Assembly (NCBI RefSeq): GCF_029227855.1
Contig: NZ_CP074356.1
Strand: one strand, 5' to 3'
DNA from: Escherichia coli
GTDB taxonomy: Bacteria; Pseudomonadota; Gammaproteobacteria; Enterobacterales; Enterobacteriaceae
Length of the DNA stretch: 64,000 nucleotides
Positions within the stretch are counted from its first letter, which is position 1; each line of letters begins with the position of its first letter. This document shows, one piece after another, positions 1,334 through 19,194 of this stretch. A model generated the notes under the pieces. The model had not been told where the DNA came from. It did not search any database and saw only the letters and a list, made by a program, of their open reading frames with translations. The position numbers and the translations under genes are program-made.

Positions 1334-4300
1334 TTACTCGCTAACCATCTTACTGAATAACTTCTCCAGATAAACGGGGCCTGTATCCTCAATAAAAAGC
1401 ACATTTCTGGCTTCCAGATTTTCTTTTGAGTCAGGTACGTTTACTAAGTCAACATAACAAGTTTCAGAAACAATAAATGCACTTAATGATAAGTTATCAT
1501 CCGATAATTTATGTTCAAGATTCTTAATTTCTTTATATAATCCGAACTTCGGATCATCAAGATTAAGATTGCGAATGCCTTTTGGATCAATAAGACTTAG
1601 CCATTGTTTACCACTTTTATCATCGACTAACCACAATAAGAAATCCGGATAAAAATTACCCGCAGTAGCAAAGCCCAGGCCTTTATTTTTAGAATCCGCA
1701 TTTCTTAGCAGATATAAACTTTTATCACCAATAATTTTCTGCCCTTTTGTCGAATCAACAAAAGACTGAAGATCCTGAACAAAAGTAATCTCGCTTGGCG
1801 CACCAAGTGCTGCCGGTCGCATTTTTAGCGGTATATTGGCATTTTTTTCAATCGAAAGAAGCGGGTAATAGAGATGTTTATCAAAGGTAATAGCAACCAT
1901 CCCGGATGCACTCCAGGATTTTGCTTTACCGATTTCGCCGTCGATGACCAATTGTTGTAATTGTTCCAGCCGACTGGCATAAGCCAACCCATCATCAGTT
2001 TCTTCGATCTCGAAATGGTACATTTTGATCATACCAGGATCATCTTCTTTCACCTGCGTGACTTCATAAAACTGACCTTCATAAGCATTTTTCAAGGTGT
2101 TGTAAAAGCGATCAGTATAATCAGTCAGCAGACGAAGCATAATATCTTCCTGCTTAGCAATATCTGCATATTGCTTAATCTCAAGCTCTGAAGCTGGAAT
2201 CAAAAGGGTATACCAACTATTTCCGATCTTTGTCTTACCGGTACAAAAGTCGATCAAACGTTGTTTATCCACACGTAAATTTGACCAGCCGCGTTGTAGT
2301 TTATAATTCTGAATGGCGAGATAAAGCCGATCAAAATCAAATGCACTAATGATTTTATAATCTAACTTCGCTTCATTGCGCACGTTAACCGGAGTATTGT
2401 CCCCTTTTCTGCTGGTATCAATCGACTCAAGTTTCGGGTATAAGTCCAGCTTAATATGCGGCTGCTTAATTTTCCCCTGAAAATCAGCAGGAACTTCATA
2501 CAATTCGGGAAAATAGACACGTTTAAAGCCGAGTCTTTGATTATCTTTATAACCATCTTTAAGCTTAAGTGTTTTAAGCCTGGTTGCTGGCATATTTGGC
2601 CGAGTTTCAAAATTCAGCTCAAGGATCTCGTCACTTGGCGTAATCCCTTCATCTTCCAGGTATTGTTTAAAGGTTGCCATGTAATCGGCACGTACACCGA
2701 ATACATTCAGTGTCTCTAATTTTTCCAGATGCAACCCTTTCGGACGCTCACCGGGTGTACTGCGTTTCAAAGAATAATTGCGACCTTTAAGGCGTACGCC
2801 ACGACCAAATAACTGAATGATCTGTGAACCTTCTCCACGGCCCATATTGAGCAATCCCATCGTTGAGACGCGCCAACTGCTCCAGCCTTCAGTAAATTTT
2901 CGCGAGCCGATCAAAATATGTAGTCGCGAGTCTTTGTCATTTAACGTATGAAAGAGTGACTTTGCAAAATCATCTCTCTGATAATCAAATGTCGTATCCT
3001 CTTCACACATTTTGTAAAGAGACGGTGCATCACCAATATTGATAAGGCCAAACGGTTCGGCCTCACCAACCTGTAATGCCAGTTCACCTTTACTGCCTAT
3101 TAAATTCAGAACTCGCAGTCGCTGACCAGAGTGAGTGGTGTTAAACAAGCGAGAAAGAATATCTGCGTAGATATCTTCCGGAGCGTTCATTAGTGCAGTA
3201 AAGCGATTTTCAAAAATGTTACGCTCTTTGGTATCGAGGATTCGCGCTTTATTTTTAATGAGATCGTTAATCCACGCTTTTGCCTGCGTTTCGTGGTTTA
3301 AAAACCATGCTAAAAAACGCAATACTGCGTGAATGTCTGAATCTTCACCACTTACCGTATTACCGACAAAAACCCACAGCGGTTTTTCGATATTAAATTC
3401 ACTTAATTTTTCTTTATTCTTATTGAATAAATATTGTTGCTGATAAAAGCTGAGCAAACACGCGGTAAAATACTCATACCGACGCTCATCTTTTTTATCC
3501 TCTTCAGGATTAAGGTTAAGAATCAGTGATTCTTTACCATAACCATCCTCATAGAAGAATTTATAGGAGTAATCGAACAGAATCGATTTTCCATAGACCT
3601 CTCGCGTCGCCTGAATACGCGCATCTCGTTTTTCTTCGCTGGTTAATGCTATTTGCGCTAACTCTTCTTCGTTCAGTTTACCTAAGGCCGTTGTTTCAAA
3701 AAGCAGCTTTGCTTTTTTCTTCTGAATTTCTGTTTCAACTGCCTCAACATTATTGCCACCGGCTACTGCCTGGCCAAAAGTTGCTGAATATTCAAACGCA
3801 AATCCGTCACGTGTTAATTTGTCACGACGGCGCATCCAGGCACCAGCAGCACTTCCGGTGCCTTTATGCCCTTCATCAATCAGAACCAGATTGTTGCCTT
3901 CAAATGCCTCAACGGCAACAGTTTTGTCACCCATTTCATCGGCAAGTTTATTGATATCAATAACTTCAATCGTGCCTTTGAAGGGCGCAGATTTACTCTT
4001 ATCGAATAACTGGTATTGGGTAAATCCTGAGTTTTCCAGCTCATCTAAATGTTGCTTCGACAGGCGTTCATCCGGCGTAAGCAGGATGATTTTATCCGGG
4101 TAATGGTGGGTATTACCGTTCTGGAAATAATGTAAATATTGCAAAATATTGACATGCAATAGCAGTGTTTTACCCGAACCGGTAGCGTTCCAGTATGCAA
4201 GTTTATTCAAGTCATCTAGAATGTATGATTTGAACTGATTAGCCCGGTCTTTTGCTGTTTTATCATTTTCAGCATTGTATGCTGCCAGCTCGTTATTTAG

Positions 4301-4714
4301 CCCATCGAGTAATTGCTGTTTACGATTGAAGTACCAGTCCAGGTAGATCTCGGTAAACAGAAGCGACAAGTACTGAAAATATTTCATATTCAGCACGGTG
4401 TCTTCTTTGCGATTACGGTGCTCAGTTATCTGCTGCCAGTGCTGTACGATATTGAGATCGTAACGACGCAGTTCATCGAGATCGATAAGATCGACCTCGA
4501 ATAAATAGTTACTCAGCTCATGGAAGAACAAGCTTTGGCCATCTTCATGGATGCCTTCAAAGCGATCTTCACCTAACCGATTTTTTAAACCTTGCAATGT
4601 GCCATCTTTAAAAAAATGGAACATAAAGCGGTTCAAAACCAGTTGCTTATGAAAGCTCAGTTTGCTGTTTGTCTCTTTTTTAACAGCTTTACCGGTGGTC
4701 GGTTTTTTAGCCAT
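1334..4714 (-). CDS. Type III restriction Res-like protein: superfamily-2 helicase with C-terminal PD-(D/E)xK nuclease motif (1126 aa)
   Basis: Walker A ATGSGKT, motif II LVLIDEGH, motif III SAT (EYSATFGQ), motif VI QLFGRGVRL; C-terminal NFYPDFLLWLV ... LSLIDPKG fits PD...DxK. ATG at 4714 lies 2 nt after the upstream gene's stop, with a GGAGGAGG Shine-Dalgarno inside that gene's 3' end. Confidence 0.8.
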   Translation of the reverse strand: MAKKPTTGKAVKKETNSKLSFHKQLVLNRFMFHFFKDGTLQGLKNRLGEDRFEGIHEDGQSLFFHELSNYLFEVDLIDLDELRRYDLNIVQHWQQITEHRNRKEDTVLNMKYFQYLSLLFTEIYLDWYFNRKQQLLDGLNNELAAYNAENDKTAKDRANQFKSYILDDLNKLAYWNATGSGKTLLLHVNILQYLHYFQNGNTHHYPDKIILLTPDERLSKQHLDELENSGFTQYQLFDKSKSAPFKGTIEVIDINKLADEMGDKTVAVEAFEGNNLVLIDEGHKGTGSAAGAWMRRRDKLTRDGFAFEYSATFGQAVAGGNNVEAVETEIQKKKAKLLFETTALGKLNEEELAQIALTSEEKRDARIQATREVYGKSILFDYSYKFFYEDGYGKESLILNLNPEEDKKDERRYEYFTACLLSFYQQQYLFNKNKEKLSEFNIEKPLWVFVGNTVSGEDSDIHAVLRFLAWFLNHETQAKAWINDLIKNKARILDTKERNIFENRFTALMNAPEDIYADILSRLFNTTHSGQRLRVLNLIGSKGELALQVGEAEPFGLINIGDAPSLYKMCEEDTTFDYQRDDFAKSLFHTLNDKDSRLHILIGSRKFTEGWSSWRVSTMGLLNMGRGEGSQIIQLFGRGVRLKGRNYSLKRSTPGERPKGLHLEKLETLNVFGVRADYMATFKQYLEDEGITPSDEILELNFETRPNMPATRLKTLKLKDGYKDNQRLGFKRVYFPELYEVPADFQGKIKQPHIKLDLYPKLESIDTSRKGDNTPVNVRNEAKLDYKIISAFDFDRLYLAIQNYKLQRGWSNLRVDKQRLIDFCTGKTKIGNSWYTLLIPASELEIKQYADIAKQEDIMLRLLTDYTDRFYNTLKNAYEGQFYEVTQVKEDDPGMIKMYHFEIEETDDGLAYASRLEQLQQLVIDGEIGKAKSWSASGMVAITFDKHLYYPLLSIEKNANIPLKMRPAALGAPSEITFVQDLQSFVDSTKGQKIIGDKSLYLLRNADSKNKGLGFATAGNFYPDFLLWLVDDKSGKQWLSLIDPKGIRNLNLDDPKFGLYKEIKNLEHKLSDDNLSLSAFIVSETCYVDLVNVPDSKENLEARNVLFIEDTGPVYLEKLFSKMVSE

Positions 4715-4716
4715 TC

Positions 4717-6513
4717 TTAAACCTCCTCCGCAAACATCAGGTTCAAGAATTCAGGTTCGATCTGGCGGATTTTCAGGCTACGAACAATCTCGCCGTCTTC
4801 TTCATCAACAGTAAAGGCGGTAGGTAAGTTATGATCGCCATTGATATAGATAACGTCGAACGTGTTTTCTTTTGCATATAAATCGAATCGGTTGGCATAT
4901 TTATTCAATTCTTCATAACCGATCTTGTCGCAATCGCGCCACAGAATAAGGGTACGCTCGCCTGTTGGTAGCATTCCTTCAACACGCACATAGCCACGTT
5001 CGATATTGGATTCGATGGATTTCACATGTAAACCAATGAGATAGTTGAAAGTTTCAACTAAATCGATGTTTTTACGCTCAGTGGCACCGGCGGAATCCGT
5101 CGCAATATCCATTTCGTAGTTAAATGGTTTTTTGAAATTATCAGTACTGAGTAGTGAACCTTTGCTTTCTGTTTCAAGCATATATTTTATTAAATACTCA
5201 TTTGCTACTGATTCATTCACTGTATCAAAAAGATCTTTTATTTCTTTTTGTTGTTCAAATCGAAGGCTATTTAATACATCTTCGTAACTTTCTATTTTCA
5301 TAACTTTAAGTATATGAGATGAGCCTGTCGTTGAATCCATAGCTTTACCATCTTTCCAATTGCTACTGAATATAACTTTTCTCAACCTGCTTAAAGTTAC
5401 ATTTTGTGCATACTCCCCCTGTTCAACAAGTATATATTTCCTTGAACCCGCATCCTTACGATTCAACTCTATGACTGAGTGGCCACTTGTTCCTGAACCA
5501 GCAAAAAAATCTAATATTATCTCATTTTTATTATGAGATGCACTCCCAATTAAATAATTATATAAAGAAGTTGAGTGACAATAAGGAAAATCAATTCCAA
5601 GATGAGTTGTTTGAGTTTTTCCTTTTTTAGCATCCTGAATTATTGATGTTATTTGCTTTTTAGCGTCAGCATATAAATATGCTTTCTGTCTAGGTTGCGT
5701 TGTTTCATCAACACCAAATAGTATATCCCCCTTATCCATCATATCTTTTAATGTTTCTGGGGTACGAGAAAAACCATTTGGTGGCATAGCGCATGGTTTC
5801 CCGGTAACTGGATGAATTAATGGTATATAGAATTTCTTGTCAGTCCTTGGCTCTGGGGCACGGAGGCTGACACTCTGGTACACTCGACCTTTCTCATCGA
5901 TATATTTGTAAGCTTGTTCACCTCCAGTAAGTTTTTTATTCTTTGTTACCCAATCATAAAATTTTTTCTTTGCTTCACTGTTAATTACAGGATATTTATT
6001 CTTAATTAATTTTGCATATTCGAGTATTTCTAATACATTCTCATTTTTCTTATTAATAGAAATCATGTTCTTTGTAAAACAAGTAGTATATTCATGTTGA
6101 ATCGCAATGCCACTACCACCATTCATGGGATTGCGTTTATCCCAAATAATTGTCCCTGCATCGATAAGACCTAACTGTTTATTAATTAAATAAAGTCGCT
6201 CATATTCATTTTCATCAATATGACAAAAAAATACACCATTTTCACTGAGTAAATTTTTAACAAAAAGCAAACGGCTATCCATCATACTCAGCCAACTTGA
6301 ATGCTTAAAGCTATTTTTATATAAAAAACCACTAGTATCTGTGTTATATGGTGGATCTATATGGACACAATCAATTACGGAATTATATTTTTTCTTCAAA
6401 AGATTTAACGCTTGATAATTATCACCATTAATAAAAACGCCATCAACATTATCGTCAATATCATTGATACTATTTAATATTTTTTCCTTAGATCTCCGTT
6501 TAAATGAGATAAA
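4717..6513 (-). CDS. beta-class N6-adenine/N4-cytosine DNA methyltransferase (Mod-like); no canonical start, probably joined to the upstream ORF by a -1 frameshift
   Basis: Motif IV IDPPYN followed later by motif I LDFFAGSGTSG (order IV then I is beta class). The ORF track starts at a TTG (6399), but the frame is open upstream to 6513 and encodes a conserved-looking pre-motif segment (DGVFINGDNYQALNLL). No ATG/GTG between the stop at 6514..6516 and 6399. Confidence 0.75.
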   Translation of the reverse strand, partial: FISFKRRSKEKILNSINDIDDNVDGVFINGDNYQALNLLKKKYNSVIDCVHIDPPYNTDTSGFLYKNSFKHSSWLSMMDSRLLFVKNLLSENGVFFCHIDENEYERLYLINKQLGLIDAGTIIWDKRNPMNGGSGIAIQHEYTTCFTKNMISINKKNENVLEILEYAKLIKNKYPVINSEAKKKFYDWVTKNKKLTGGEQAYKYIDEKGRVYQSVSLRAPEPRTDKKFYIPLIHPVTGKPCAMPPNGFSRTPETLKDMMDKGDILFGVDETTQPRQKAYLYADAKKQITSIIQDAKKGKTQTTHLGIDFPYCHSTSLYNYLIGSASHNKNEIILDFFAGSGTSGHSVIELNRKDAGSRKYILVEQGEYAQNVTLSRLRKVIFSSNWKDGKAMDSTTGSSHILKVMKIESYEDVLNSLRFEQQKEIKDLFDTVNESVANEYLIKYMLETESKGSLLSTDNFKKPFNYEMDIATDSAGATERKNIDLVETFNYLIGLHVKSIESNIERGYVRVEGMLPTGERTLILWRDCDKIGYEELNKYANRFDLYAKENTFDVIYINGDHNLPTAFTVDEEDGEIVRSLKIRQIEPEFLNLMFAEEV

Positions 6514-7838
6514 TTAACTGTTGCAAACTTGAGCAACTCCACATCAGAGGTAGATGGCTTCTCATCTAAGATGCCTAATTCAATCCATTCTTGGACTATT
6601 TTTTCATTATTAATTATTTCACTGTAAAACTCTGAACTTATTTTGTCCATAGTAATATAGTAATTACTTGAAACAACAAACTTCTTCTTAGTCCAAAGTT
6701 TCTTCTGGAAATTCTCAATTTGTGCCAAAAATGCAATGAGTTCCAGCGCAACAGTACGCAAACATTGAATCATGCGCAATTGTTTCTCAATATTGGCAAA
6801 CACTTCTGCATTTTGCACATTATCGAGATTCATTACTTCATTTTTAATATAAAAATCCAGTTCGTTAGTTAAAAAACCACCGAGATCTTTATGAATAAAG
6901 TAGTCTGCTGTATTACGCTGGGTATAAGTTGTAAGATGACGCTCCAACTCTGTACGTGACGGATTTTTTTCTGTTGGCGCACGTTTAGCAAGATCAACCC
7001 AATGCTGTTGAACTGTTTTATCAGCCAGAATTGTTGAAATAGCGGACTGCACTAAAGCATCCTGCTTAGTGCCCTTTTTCATGGCCTTATATTCGAAGTG
7101 AATAACTAACTCTTCTGTTTCAACGAGTTTACCGTCAACCACAGATGAAGTTTTCACCACTTCTACTGGCTTATATTCTTGTTCGTACTCATCGCCTTCT
7201 TCATCAATTTTGGTACGAACATGCGGCTCAATAAGTACAAAGCAGCGATCTAATTCATTATCTTTACGGTTATCTTTTGCTGTGTCCGCTGCGAGCAATT
7301 TAAAGCTAACTTTACGACCCTCATCTAATTTAAATGAATAATTAGCAAAGTTTTCACCGCTTTTAATGTAGTACTGGTCCTTATTTGCCCAGTGCAACAT
7401 CACTTCTTCGCCAGAATAAGGGATGGCGTAGGTATTACCTTTATAACGGCGTTTGCTGATAAAATCGCCGTTGTCATAATAACGCGAAAAGAAAGTCAGC
7501 AGATGGGAAAATACTGCATTTTCATGCTCATTTGCTCCGGATGCCATAGCCGCCAGTTGCTTTTTAAGCTCCTGTACTTTCGGGCTATCAGCAGGGTCCA
7601 CACCCGCATCAGTTGCCGCTTTTATTGTCAGTTGCAACTGATGTTCTAATTCTGATTTATTGGCATTTCCTGCATCCGCCAGCGCAGACTGGATTTTGGC
7701 CTTCAGCTTATTATCCAGATAGTCGTTAATTTCATCAGCACGTGCATTTAAAATACGATAAATACCGAAATCCAGTTCTGGTCGATCAATCTGAAAAATT
7801 TCTTTTAGCTTCTTAACTAATTCGTTGTACTTACTCAT
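6474..7838 (-). CDS. uncharacterised protein (454 aa from ATG at 7838); possible N-terminal part of a fused methyltransferase
   Basis: Long ORF with no motifs I recognise. Lies 20 bp downstream of the SNF2 gene stop; its 3' end overlaps the open methyltransferase frame (6474..6513). Confidence 0.7.
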   Translation of the reverse strand: MSKYNELVKKLKEIFQIDRPELDFGIYRILNARADEINDYLDNKLKAKIQSALADAGNANKSELEHQLQLTIKAATDAGVDPADSPKVQELKKQLAAMASGANEHENAVFSHLLTFFSRYYDNGDFISKRRYKGNTYAIPYSGEEVMLHWANKDQYYIKSGENFANYSFKLDEGRKVSFKLLAADTAKDNRKDNELDRCFVLIEPHVRTKIDEEGDEYEQEYKPVEVVKTSSVVDGKLVETEELVIHFEYKAMKKGTKQDALVQSAISTILADKTVQQHWVDLAKRAPTEKNPSRTELERHLTTYTQRNTADYFIHKDLGGFLTNELDFYIKNEVMNLDNVQNAEVFANIEKQLRMIQCLRTVALELIAFLAQIENFQKKLWTKKKFVVSSNYYITMDKISSEFYSEIINNEKIVQEWIELGILDEKPSTSDVELLKFATVNLSHLNGDLRKKY

Positions 7839-7858
7839 TATTTTCTCTTTCAAATCAA

Positions 7859-16129: not shown

Positions 16130-18976
16130 TCAGAAAGTCACATTCAGCGTGGCCTGACCGTTATAACCTTCAGCGCTGCTGCCGCTGACACTGTGGGCAT
16201 AACCGGCCTGAACGCCCAGGGTGATATTTTCCCGGACACGGGCTTCCAGTCCGGCCTGCAGGTCCAGTGACGTGCCATTCCGGGACGGTGAGAACGTCAT
16301 GTTACTGCCGGCGGCGGCTGTCCCCATGCTCATGTCACCCCGGGAACTGAAGGTGCGGATAACAGAAGGCTGTACCCACCAGTTCACCGGCAGTTCACGC
16401 ACACGGTGTTTTGCACTGTCGCGCAGGGTGTCACGGGATGAGGTGCCTTCACCAAAGCTCATATCGTTGTGGCTGCCCAGACGGAAACCGGCACGCACAT
16501 GTTGTGCACTGCCATGCCCGAACTTCACATAACCGGCGTTATCCTGGCCGTCATCCAGGGAAAGTCCCTGCCAGGTATACTGCAGTTGTGGCTCCAGCAT
16601 CAGGTTGTCAGTGATACTGAAGGGCAGACCGGTTTCCAGTGAGCCCAGCCAGCCCCAGCCGCGGGCGCGGAAGTCGTTATTGTCCGATGACGCTTTCATG
16701 CTGTGGCGGGTTCCCTGTGCCACAATGTCAGCCCACAGGCCGGAGGACGTGTGTGTCAGATTCAGGTATCCGCCCAGGCTGCCGGCATCATCCCGGACCG
16801 TGCCGGCGCGGGAACCGTCATCATCCTTAACATCAACGGAAGAATGGCCTGCGGCACCATGCACCCCTGTCGTCAGAGACATACCGGCAACCTCTGTTCT
16901 GAGCAGGTCACCCTCCAGACGGACGAAGCCATAGCTGCCGCTGCTTTCCGGCGTGGCTCCACGGGCAATACCGCCGTTGTTATCGTGACCGAGATGACCG
17001 CCCTGAATGCTGAGACGGACGCTGTTATTTTCACCGTTTACACCGGTCTGATGGCTGCGGGAGCCTGCCAGAATCCGGTCATAGTCCATTGCCTGTGTCA
17101 GCATGGAGGCATACAGGGGGACTTCAGCACGATAAGCATTTTCACTGCGCAGGTACCAGTCTTCATCGCTGTCACGGTTCAGGGTGTAGTTAAAGGCGCC
17201 GGCCTGAAGCGGGCGACTCAGGGCAAATGCACCTTCTTCTGTGGTGGCGCCATTCTGTGCATCCACAACCCGGATACCCTGTCCGGAGGTTGCCACCCCG
17301 AGGTTACTGTTTCCGACATTTGTAAACGCAAGCCAGGTTTTGCCGGTTGCCTGACCACCATTAATCACCAGCTGGTCAGAGGTATTGCTGCCATCAAGGC
17401 GAACACGCATATTGATGGTGCCACCCTGACCGGTGAGGTTACTGGTGGTCAGTTTATGGAACGTTACCGGGGAGTCGCCTTTTGCAACAGCACGGCTCAG
17501 CGCGGCATCCGGTGTCGTCTGATTATCAAAGCGAATCTCCCCTGCGTTAACAATATCGCCGGTACTGACCACATCGCCATTCAGTACCATGCTGGCACCT
17601 TTACTGAGCTGTGTTCTGCCACTCAGACTTCCCCCGGCAGCCAGCGTCAGTGTTCCACGATGTCCGACAGTGGTGTTGCTGGCCAGTCCTCCGGCATTAA
17701 CCGTAAAGCTGCCGCCATTTTCCAGCAGCAGTCCGCTGGCCTGACCGGATGTGCCATCAATACTGAACTTACCGCTGGCATTGGTCCCCTCAACAGTGGC
17801 ACCACTGTCTGCAATCAGGGCACTACCGGATGTCATGGTGACATCTGTTGCCTTACCACCGGCAGACACTGCCAGGGTTCCGCCGTCATCCACCAGTGTT
17901 TTCCAGGCTGAATGGCCCTCCAGTACATCCAGGCGACCACCGGACTCCAGAACAACACCGTCAGCATTACCGTTTTCCACAGTGAAATTGCCCAGACGGT
18001 TGCTGCCGGTGACGGTTGCCGCCGTACTGGTGACCAGTGCGCCTCCCTGCTTCAGGGTGACATTCGTGGCTGTACCACCGGCGTTCACCTGCAGTTTGCC
18101 TTTCTGGTTAACGGTGGTGAAATCCGCCAGACCACCTTCCTTGACAATCTGCCAGCCGTCACTGTTTACAACCGTGTCAGAGGCTGTGCCTCCGTTGTGC
18201 ACATACTGGTAACCGCCATTCAGTGTGGTATCCAGCGCATGCCCGTGTACCGTCTGGTCGCCGCCGGCATAAACCACAGTGGTATTTGCTGTTCCTTCAG
18301 CAGCCACAATCTGACGACCATTTTCATTGATAGTGGTACGTACGGCATTTCCGCGAACAAACTGCCCGGTATCACCATTTTCTGCATCCGGTCCCCCTTC
18401 CGCGCCGGTATTCACAACCGTGTCGGTTGCCATTGCGCCGGATTTGACGGCCTGCCAGCCCTTCTCATTAATGACGGTACCCGTTGCAATCCCGCCTTCA
18501 TGTACCCACTGCTCACCGCCGTTCAGAGTGGTGTTCACTGCCTGCCCCTGAAGGCTCTGTCCGCCTCCGGCACTGATAACCGTGTCTGAAACGCTTCCTC
18601 CGGCATTCACTCTCTGAAGACCACCACCGGTGACAGTAGTGTTGTTGGCGATACCGCCATTTTGTATCCATTGTCCGCCGGTATTGGCCTCGTTATCCGG
18701 CCCATACTCCAGACCGGTACTGATGGTCATTCCGTTGGCCGTACCGAAGACAATCTGGTTGTCATGATTTGTCAGTGTTCCGCCGCTCACGGTTTCTCCC
18801 GCCTGTACGACCGTGTCAGCAGCCAGTACCGGGACTGACGTGACAGCAGCAAGAGACAGCGCAACCGCCACACCGGTGCGTTTTCCCCGTGAGCGCGCCA
18901 GTTCGGAAGCCACCACCAGGGTGCCCGTAATGTGATTCCATACCAGCCTGTAGCTGGTGTTCAGATGTCGTTTCAT
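16130..18976 (-). CDS. flu: antigen 43 (AIDA-I-type self-associating autotransporter adhesin)
   Basis: 948 aa; N-terminal extended signal peptide [15 protein letters not shown], repetitive beta-helix passenger, C-terminal beta-barrel ending …ATLNVTF. Confidence 0.9.
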
Positions 18977-19194
18977 CAGCTTTTCCTTACAGAGGGTGAA
19001 TAAAAAAGCCGGTACCCACAAATGTGGATACCGGCAGGTACAAAACAGCATGGTCAGATAAAGTGGTTTTTCCCGGACATAAATGCTTCCCCTCTCTCAT
19101 CCGCCAGAGAAGTATCAGTCCGTTGTGTGCAATTCCGTTCTGCATGATGAAGAGATTCAGCTGCCTTTTCGCAGGCCATTAACCACTATAAACG

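Follow-up and report, generated by a model that had tools for sequence, protein, structure and literature searches.

A 454-residue open reading frame of an Escherichia coli defence operon as the N-terminal part of a frameshifted Eco86II-type Mod

Identity of the open reading frame

A stretch of Escherichia coli DNA of 64,000 nucleotides (contig NZ_CP074356.1 of assembly GCF_029227855.1; the window in what follows) carries an open reading frame (ORF) of 454 amino acids (aa) on the minus strand at 6474-7838. It is flanked by an SNF2-family gene (7859-10750) and by an ORF with methyltransferase motifs (4717-6399, in a frame that is open from 6513). A sequence-only reading had described the ORF as a protein without recognisable motifs, probably fused to the methyltransferase and the least explained component of a candidate defence system. 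We found that the ORF is the N-terminal part of the Mod subunit of a Type III system of restriction and modification (R-M), cut off from the remainder of the gene by a 1-bp deletion; this identification is close to certain. The best explanation as a whole, which we regard as likely, is that the ORF represents the N-terminal non-catalytic module of about 450 residues of an Eco86II-type Mod, and that this N-terminal domain (NTD) is a scaffold coupled to the Res subunit.

The ORF reads from an ATG at 7838 to a TAA stop at 6476-6474, and its position and length are as first described. The longest reading in the ORF listing begins at a TTG at 7853 and gives 459 aa, but the ATG appears to be the better start because it agrees with the RefSeq start of the intact gene of strain E24377A and with the MSKYNELV N-termini of homologues. 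Remote-homology searches, which had been suggested as a check, were divided in outcome. No match to the ORF was detected in Pfam (even at E<=10), NCBIfam or the PDB sequences, in agreement with the reported absence of motifs, and searches of Pfam, NCBIfam, PHROGs and PDB sequences with the ORF and with a profile of 71 NTD sequences (homologues cut from genomic loci) returned nothing significant. The PADLOC profile for Type III methyltransferases (PDLC03646) was matched by the ORF over positions 1-458 of 1057 with 1031 bits. The downstream frame, which in translation is already open, at -1, across the last part of the ORF, matched positions 454-1057 of the same profile with 1160 bits. Since the two ORFs tile a single profile, they are read here as one mod gene.

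In E24377A this gene is a single coding sequence (CDS) of 1040 aa (WP_000049824.1), annotated as 'site-specific DNA-methyltransferase'; the ORF differs from its N-terminus by E173D and Q307R only. Alignment placed the interruption in a homopolymer: the window has T6 on the plus strand where E24377A, F9792 and NCTC86 have T7, and Mod is annotated as an intact 1040-aa CDS in all three of these A7 genomes examined. A context survey of 80 loci from other species was made, and the NTD and the methyltransferase core lay in one stop-free frame in all 70 usable loci. For this reason the ORF is considered to be the N-terminal part of Mod severed by a 1-bp deletion, and the suspected fusion to the methyltransferase was borne out. 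The features of the operon are as follows.

1334..4714, minus strand: Res subunit, 1126 aa, SF2 ATPase with a C-terminal PD-(D/E)XK-like motif (PADLOC REase_III PDLC03654, 2326 bits; Pfam ResIII)
4717..6513, minus strand: remainder of Mod in the -1 frame, with methyltransferase core (DPPY, then FAGSG), central target recognition domain (TRD) and C-terminal domain (CTD) (PADLOC PDLC03646)
6474..7838, minus strand: 454-aa ORF, comprising Mod residues 1-453 (the NTD), one out-of-frame Tyr and a premature stop (PADLOC PDLC03646 MTase_III)
6480..6485, minus strand: frameshift site, A6 on the coding strand (T6 on the plus strand), at the boundary of NTD and methyltransferase core (alignment to E24377A, F9792 and NCTC86)
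7859..10750, minus strand: accessory SNF2-family (DrmD-like) ATPase, 963 aa (Pfam SNF2-rel_dom and Helicase_C)

The SNF2 gene, the ORF, the methyltransferase ORF and the Res-like gene are all co-oriented within a block of low GC content (36-45%, compared with 52-58% in most of the remaining window). The motif order in the downstream frame is DPPYNT followed by DFFAGSG, with motif IV N-terminal to motif I (FxGxG), which is the layout of beta-class amino-methyltransferases. All of these motifs lie outside the 454-aa ORF. N6_N4_Mtase (PF01555) was the sole Pfam family found in Mod and covers residues 489-812 of the intact protein. Separate translation of the methyltransferase half looks unlikely, because the first possible start, a TTG at 6399, is without an evident Shine-Dalgarno sequence and lies downstream of the conserved segment 'DGVFINGDNYQALNLL'. 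Programmed -1 frameshifting as the normal mode of expression was rejected: the sequence at the site, G AAA AAA T, departs from the canonical heptamer X XXY YYZ, and the gene is in frame in 30 of 33 E. coli genomes. The window allele would produce a free NTD and no methyltransferase, the frameshift stripping Mod of its catalytic core, TRD and CTD. Type III Res relies on Mod for site recognition. Because of this dependence both modification and restriction are predicted to be off in the window sequence: going by the general biology of Type III systems, there would be neither methylation nor recognition of the site by Res.

Relation to Eco86II and to other systems

Eco86II is a Type III R-M system of E. 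coli NCTC86 (Murray et al., 2021, PLoS One, PMC8259958). It has been shown that M.Eco86II expressed alone converts the fourth base of GAGCC to N4-methylcytosine (m4C), and that cleavage by the native enzyme, in partially purified form, falls about 25 bp 3' of the GAGCC site (PMC8259958). An 'additional helicase-like ATPase' is encoded 5' of mod; it is dispensable for methylation and was absent by mass spectrometry from the endonuclease fraction. The three-gene layout was reported in more than 500 genomes, and EcoF9792I and EcoB4103II were named as isospecific GAGCC systems (PMC8259958). As for the N-terminal region of Mod, the term 'N-terminal' has no occurrence in the text of that study.

Res (1126/1126 residues) and the SNF2 protein (963/963) of the window are identical to those of NCTC86, and gene order and genomic island are the same. 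With one A restored, the window Mod is identical at 1038 of 1040 positions (99.8%); the differences are E173D and F778V, the latter adjoining AdoMet motif I. In contrast to the NCTC86 protein, the window Mod is interrupted by the A7 to A6 change and is predicted to be inactive. Direct DNA matches of the locus include NCTC86, F9792 and B4103-1. By all of these comparisons, including near-identity of the TRD, the window operon is an Eco86II orthologue or isoschizomer locus. The cassette is a defence system, as had been supposed, but not a new candidate, the system having already been published. From the 99.8-100% identity to Eco86II, the system is predicted to hemi-methylate an asymmetric site and to cleave DNA in an ATP-dependent manner about 25 bp from it; through the frameshift, both activities are predicted to be lost.

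Comparison with canonical Type III enzymes sets the NTD apart. Residues 505-810 of the intact Mod align to 163-472 of EcoP15I Mod (4zcf; E 1.7e-39), and Foldseek detected the same fold in 4zcf (E 1.6e-23) and also in the Mods of H. pylori (6k0w) and Mbo45V (7dsu). Whereas these canonical Mods have 567-644 aa and lack the NTD, about 340 extra N-terminal residues are present here relative to EcoP15I, as measured by alignment offset. The central hypervariable TRD between conserved flanks, known from Type III Mods, is present (residues 561-750, over 40 systems), as is the co-oriented res with an SF2 ATPase and a C-terminal PD-(D/E)XK motif. In the Res sequence the motifs GSGKT, DEGH and YPDF...IDPK were read, and about 165 residues precede the Walker A motif. 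A search of the PDB sequences gave no detectable match of Res to any chain, EcoP15I Res included.

Class 1 DISARM (DrmD with DrmMI and DrmA/B/C) likewise has a DrmD-like SNF2 ATPase beside a large DNA methyltransferase, and DrmD models were the top PADLOC and NCBIfam matches of the SNF2 protein. However, the third gene here encodes a Type III Res. In the PADLOC search the models for DrmA, DrmB (DUF1998) and DrmC were the top match of no operon protein, and the DrmMI model did not match the NTD and was absent from the 25 PADLOC families shown for the Mod core. Class 1 DISARM was rejected on the missing DrmA/B/C components and on the score of the SNF2 protein against the NCBIfam equivalog NF038318 (DrmD_b), 667 bits against a cut-off of 950. 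The BREX-related BR/Hma system consists of a DUF499 ATPase, a DUF1156 N6-methyltransferase and an SNF2 helicase-nuclease (PMC12839542). It resembles the present operon in pairing an SNF2 helicase with a methyltransferase that bears a conserved helical N-terminal domain. It was rejected because DUF1156 is missing (Pfam searches of Mod and of the 71 NTDs) and the operon has no DUF499 ATPase gene; a further difference is that no nuclease domain was detected in the SNF2 protein (Pfam).

Length variation of the A-tract

The A6 tract is the sole indel in 16.8 kb relative to E24377A (identity 99.97%). The locus was found in 33 complete E. coli genomes, 30 of which have A7, two A6 (MS 21-1 and H22) and one A8 (MB06101); mod is annotated as 'frameshifted' by PGAP in the last three. 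With the window included, a length change at the same tract is seen in 4 of 34 sequences. The backgrounds of these variants differ: the window (A6) is 2 substitutions from E24377A, MS 21-1 (A6) is closest to NCTC86, H22 (A6) is 162 substitutions from the others, and MB06101 (A8) has zero substitutions relative to F9792. Because the closest relative of every length variant carries A7, at least four independent length-change events are indicated. The 9.4-kb operon has seven A/T7 tracts, and all four events fall on the same one. The tract may be a slippage hotspot or a site of context-specific sequencing error.

Homopolymer indels are the commonest error type of long-read assemblies, a point in favour of A6 being an assembly miscall. 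The strain would then have an intact and active Mod, and the 454-aa ORF would exist only in the record. Other homopolymer indels occur in related assemblies (in F9792, G5 to G4 in the SNF2 gene and C5 to C4 nearby), and A6 or A8 in the three further assemblies could be a context-specific basecalling error. On the other hand, there is no second indel in the 16.8 kb compared with E24377A, and a random error would rarely strike one of seven A/T7 tracts four times, although a systematic context error could. We judge a miscall to be possible, if on the unlikely side.

Alternatively, the A7 tract could be a hotspot of slippage by which Mod, and so the entire system, is turned on and off in the manner of phase-variable Type III mod genes; the window would then be an OFF variant. 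Loss of Mod is a safe way to turn a Type III system off, and the spread of the four variants over different backgrounds, together with their confinement to one of seven equally long tracts, argues in this direction. In phasevarion mod genes, however, a repeat within mod undergoes high-frequency on/off switching of the frame, whereas the present tract is short for a classical contingency locus and the gene is ON in 30 of 33 genomes; a sequencing artefact may also account for the variants. A genuine switch is, in our estimate, quite unlikely. According to PMC8259958, phase variation has not yet been described for any m4C Type III Mod.

Distribution, conservation and predicted structure of the NTD

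A sequence search for NTD homologues gave 2354 cluster representatives at E<=1e-3; with so many matches, the ORF is evidently far from a chance reading frame. The NTD occurs in at least 557 species of the genome collection, distributed over many phyla. In the 150 best homologues it lies at or near the N-terminus, and full-length members have about 950-1170 aa. AFDB50 and sequence searches found it only at the N-terminus of Mods of about 1000 aa of the Eco86II-type family, so that the domain is specific to this type of cassette, as had been anticipated.

The alignment of the 71 NTDs contains 53 invariant columns. Clusters of invariant positions are DLDFGIYR (21-28), FFSRYY..GDFIS.RRYKG.TYAIPY.GEEV.LHWANKDQYY.KS (116-160), DYFIHKDLGGFL..ELDFYIKNE (312-334) and FQKKLW.KKKFV (377-388). 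A Pfam search of the 71 sequences identified no family, neither the ORF nor the NTD profile matched the Mods 4zcf, 6k0w or 7dsu among the PDB sequences even at E<=10, and sequence and profile searches gave no match to any catalytic family.

AlphaFold models of the full-length Mod (pLDDT 83, pTM 0.80) and of the NTD alone (pLDDT 83) agree with each other. In the modelled NTD a long helical hairpin with a variable tip (34-120) is followed by a segment rich in invariant residues and of low confidence (about 135-160). A beta domain spans 155-254, and residues 259-465 form a helical region that runs on into the methyltransferase. Structural comparison of the model, another of the checks proposed earlier, found no solved structure resembling the NTD.

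Co-variation of the NTD and its possible role

Pairwise-distance matrices of protein regions were compared over 40 complete systems (40 loci among L009-L088). In these, mean pairwise identity was 55% for the NTD, the best-conserved part of Mod, against 21% for the TRD (561-750); the regions flanking the TRD had 47-55%. Judged by this conservation, the NTD is not a specificity domain. The idea that the ORF supplies target recognition does not hold: the hypervariable TRD is encoded in the downstream ORF. A regulatory or sensor role is conceivable.

Distances in the NTD followed those in Res (r=0.86-0.91) and in the Mod CTD (r=0.83), and barely those in the methyltransferase core and TRD (r=0.13-0.21). 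A partial Mantel test of NTD 1-255 against the N- and C-terminal regions of Res, with the Res helicase core controlled, gave 0.61 (p=0.001); within loci that have the SNF2 gene upstream, the values were 0.47 and 0.38 (p=0.001). Because NTD distances track Res and the CTD and scarcely the core and TRD, Mod is, on the evidence of these matrices, a mosaic: its N- and C-terminal parts make up a constant frame that goes together with Res, and the methyltransferase/TRD cassette between them is exchanged from system to system. The region 466-830 evolves independently of 1-440 and 831-1040 (r 0.1-0.3), and the latter parts track Res (r 0.75-0.91). The comparison suggests that whole methyltransferase/TRD cassettes, beyond TRDs alone, are swapped between systems.

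From conservation and co-variation we propose, tentatively, that the NTD is a constant scaffold module of Mod that is coupled to Res. A point in favour is the co-occurrence with Res, whose gene directly follows mod in 69 of 70 determinable loci. The NTD and the CTD of Mod would together form a family-specific interface to a diverged, N-terminally extended Res. This interface might extend to the accessory SNF2 ATPase, to which a link is possible and weakly supported.

Several points weigh against the scaffold proposal and the explanation built on it. The most conserved NTD segments (135-160 and 378-391) have low model confidence, and because of this their role cannot be read from the model. The correlation of distance matrices may stem from shared descent of linked segments and not from contact. 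Full methylation by M.Eco86II expressed on its own (PMC8259958) means that the NTD need not recruit Res for methylation. Finally, the frameshift that separates the NTD could be a homopolymer sequencing error, as discussed above.

An alternative is that the NTD is mainly a docking platform for the accessory SNF2 ATPase, its presence making a three-component variant of Type III systems. The NTD is restricted to the Eco86II-type Mod family, and the SNF2 gene is present in 66 of about 71 determinable other-species loci in two arrangements, upstream of mod in 53 and downstream of res in 13. Over the 40 systems the SNF2 protein's C-terminal region also shows specific co-variation with NTD 256-440 (partial r 0.38-0.41, p=0.001). 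However, most of this co-variation disappeared once the loci were stratified by gene order (0.11, p=0.12); it is thus essentially one difference between clades and was dropped as evidence. The NTD is equally conserved in the four loci that lack an SNF2 gene on both flanks, over at least 3.5 kb each. SNF2 peptides were missing from the Eco86II endonuclease after partial purification, and the SNF2 protein is dispensable for methylation (PMC8259958). In agreement with this dispensability, the SNF2 gene of F9792 (locus L002) is frameshifted by the G5 to G4 change, at a position equivalent to about 8921 of the window, yet EcoF9792I is listed as a GAGCC m4C system (PMC8259958). Docking of the ATPase as the main role of the NTD is therefore considered unlikely.

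A more far-reaching proposal combines these elements. The NTD would act as an adaptor specific to the family, linking the Mod dimer physically to the N-terminally extended Res and to the DrmD-like SNF2 motor and defining a widespread three-component branch of Type III systems (at least 557 species). The A7 tract would truly switch the system ON and OFF, and the NTD set free in the OFF state could sequester motor subunits. We regard this combination as distinctly unlikely.

That the NTD represents an enzyme in cryptic or degenerate form, such as a PD-(D/E)XK-like nuclease around D125 and E144-E145, is very improbable. Many polar residues are invariant (D125, E144, E145, N152, Q155, K159, D312, H316 and K386), and a modelled helix followed by short strands at 121-149 loosely resembles a nuclease core; the searches for catalytic families are reported above. 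An independent gene for a sensor, regulator or target-recognition protein of the cassette, as the own start and stop of the ORF in the window and its lack of a catalytic motif could imply, is scarcely tenable, and by the sequence comparisons the status of the ORF as a separate gene or component is refuted, because its stop arises from the 1-bp deletion and because 30 of 33 E. coli genomes and all 70 other-species loci have NTD and methyltransferase fused in a single frame; moreover, the NTD is the most conserved region of Mod and the TRD lies elsewhere.

Gene order, the SNF2 protein and the genomic neighbourhood

The order mod-res-SNF2 was observed in Pasteurellaceae, Neisseria, Moraxella and Cardiobacterium (loci L044-L053, L056, L063 and L065), in which the NTD is about 50 residues shorter. 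The C-terminal part of the SNF2 protein is highly charged over about 100 residues (Lys, Glu, Arg and Gln; protein about 750-963, window 7859-8500) and is likely to form a coiled coil. Region 681-963 is the least conserved part of this protein (38%, compared with 57% for the core). The putative coiled coil might pair with the long helical hairpin of the NTD.

A gap of 1.1-3.2 kb between mod and res, with an ORF on the same strand, was found in 18 of the 80 other-species loci (L014, L016, L019, L023, L024, L025, L030, L035, L037, L042, L057, L061, L065, L067, L072, L076, L086 and L088). Six of the gap ORFs were scanned with PADLOC; the matches were PDC-S02 (PD-DExK) in L016, PDC-S05 in L019, HEC-01A (AAA ATPase) in L023, SoFic in L057, AbiD in L065 and AbiU in L072. 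Other defence genes appear to insert at the junction of mod and res.

The plus strand at 19-672, where the window start cuts the gene, encodes the C-terminal 217 residues of an HNH restriction endonuclease that binds phosphorothioated DNA (NF045808, 330 bits); E24377A has the complete CDS of 873 nt. This gene adjoins the Type III operon in the same low-GC block, the two forming a small defence island. On the other side of the operon, at about 11600-19100, annotation of the near-identical E24377A region indicates a CP4-type island segment with genes for DUF957, DUF5983, the CbtA toxin and YeeU antitoxin, DUF987, a JAB-domain protein, an antirestriction protein, DUF932 and an Ag43-family autotransporter. 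The antirestriction gene is located about 6 kb from the restriction system.

Significance

The supposed unknown component is explained as the front half of a frameshifted Type III methyltransferase that has already been characterised, and the cassette is a copy, predicted to be inactivated, of a published R-M system and not a new defence system. Two points keep their interest, the NTD and the repeated variation of the tract. The NTD, with its approximately 450 residues, occurs in 2,300 protein clusters or more without a Pfam family, a structural relative or an assigned role, and it belongs to a Type III subgroup whose extra SNF2 ATPase is an acknowledged open question. If genuine, the recurrent and independent change in length of the A-tract would give a first indication that an m4C Type III Mod can be phase-variable.

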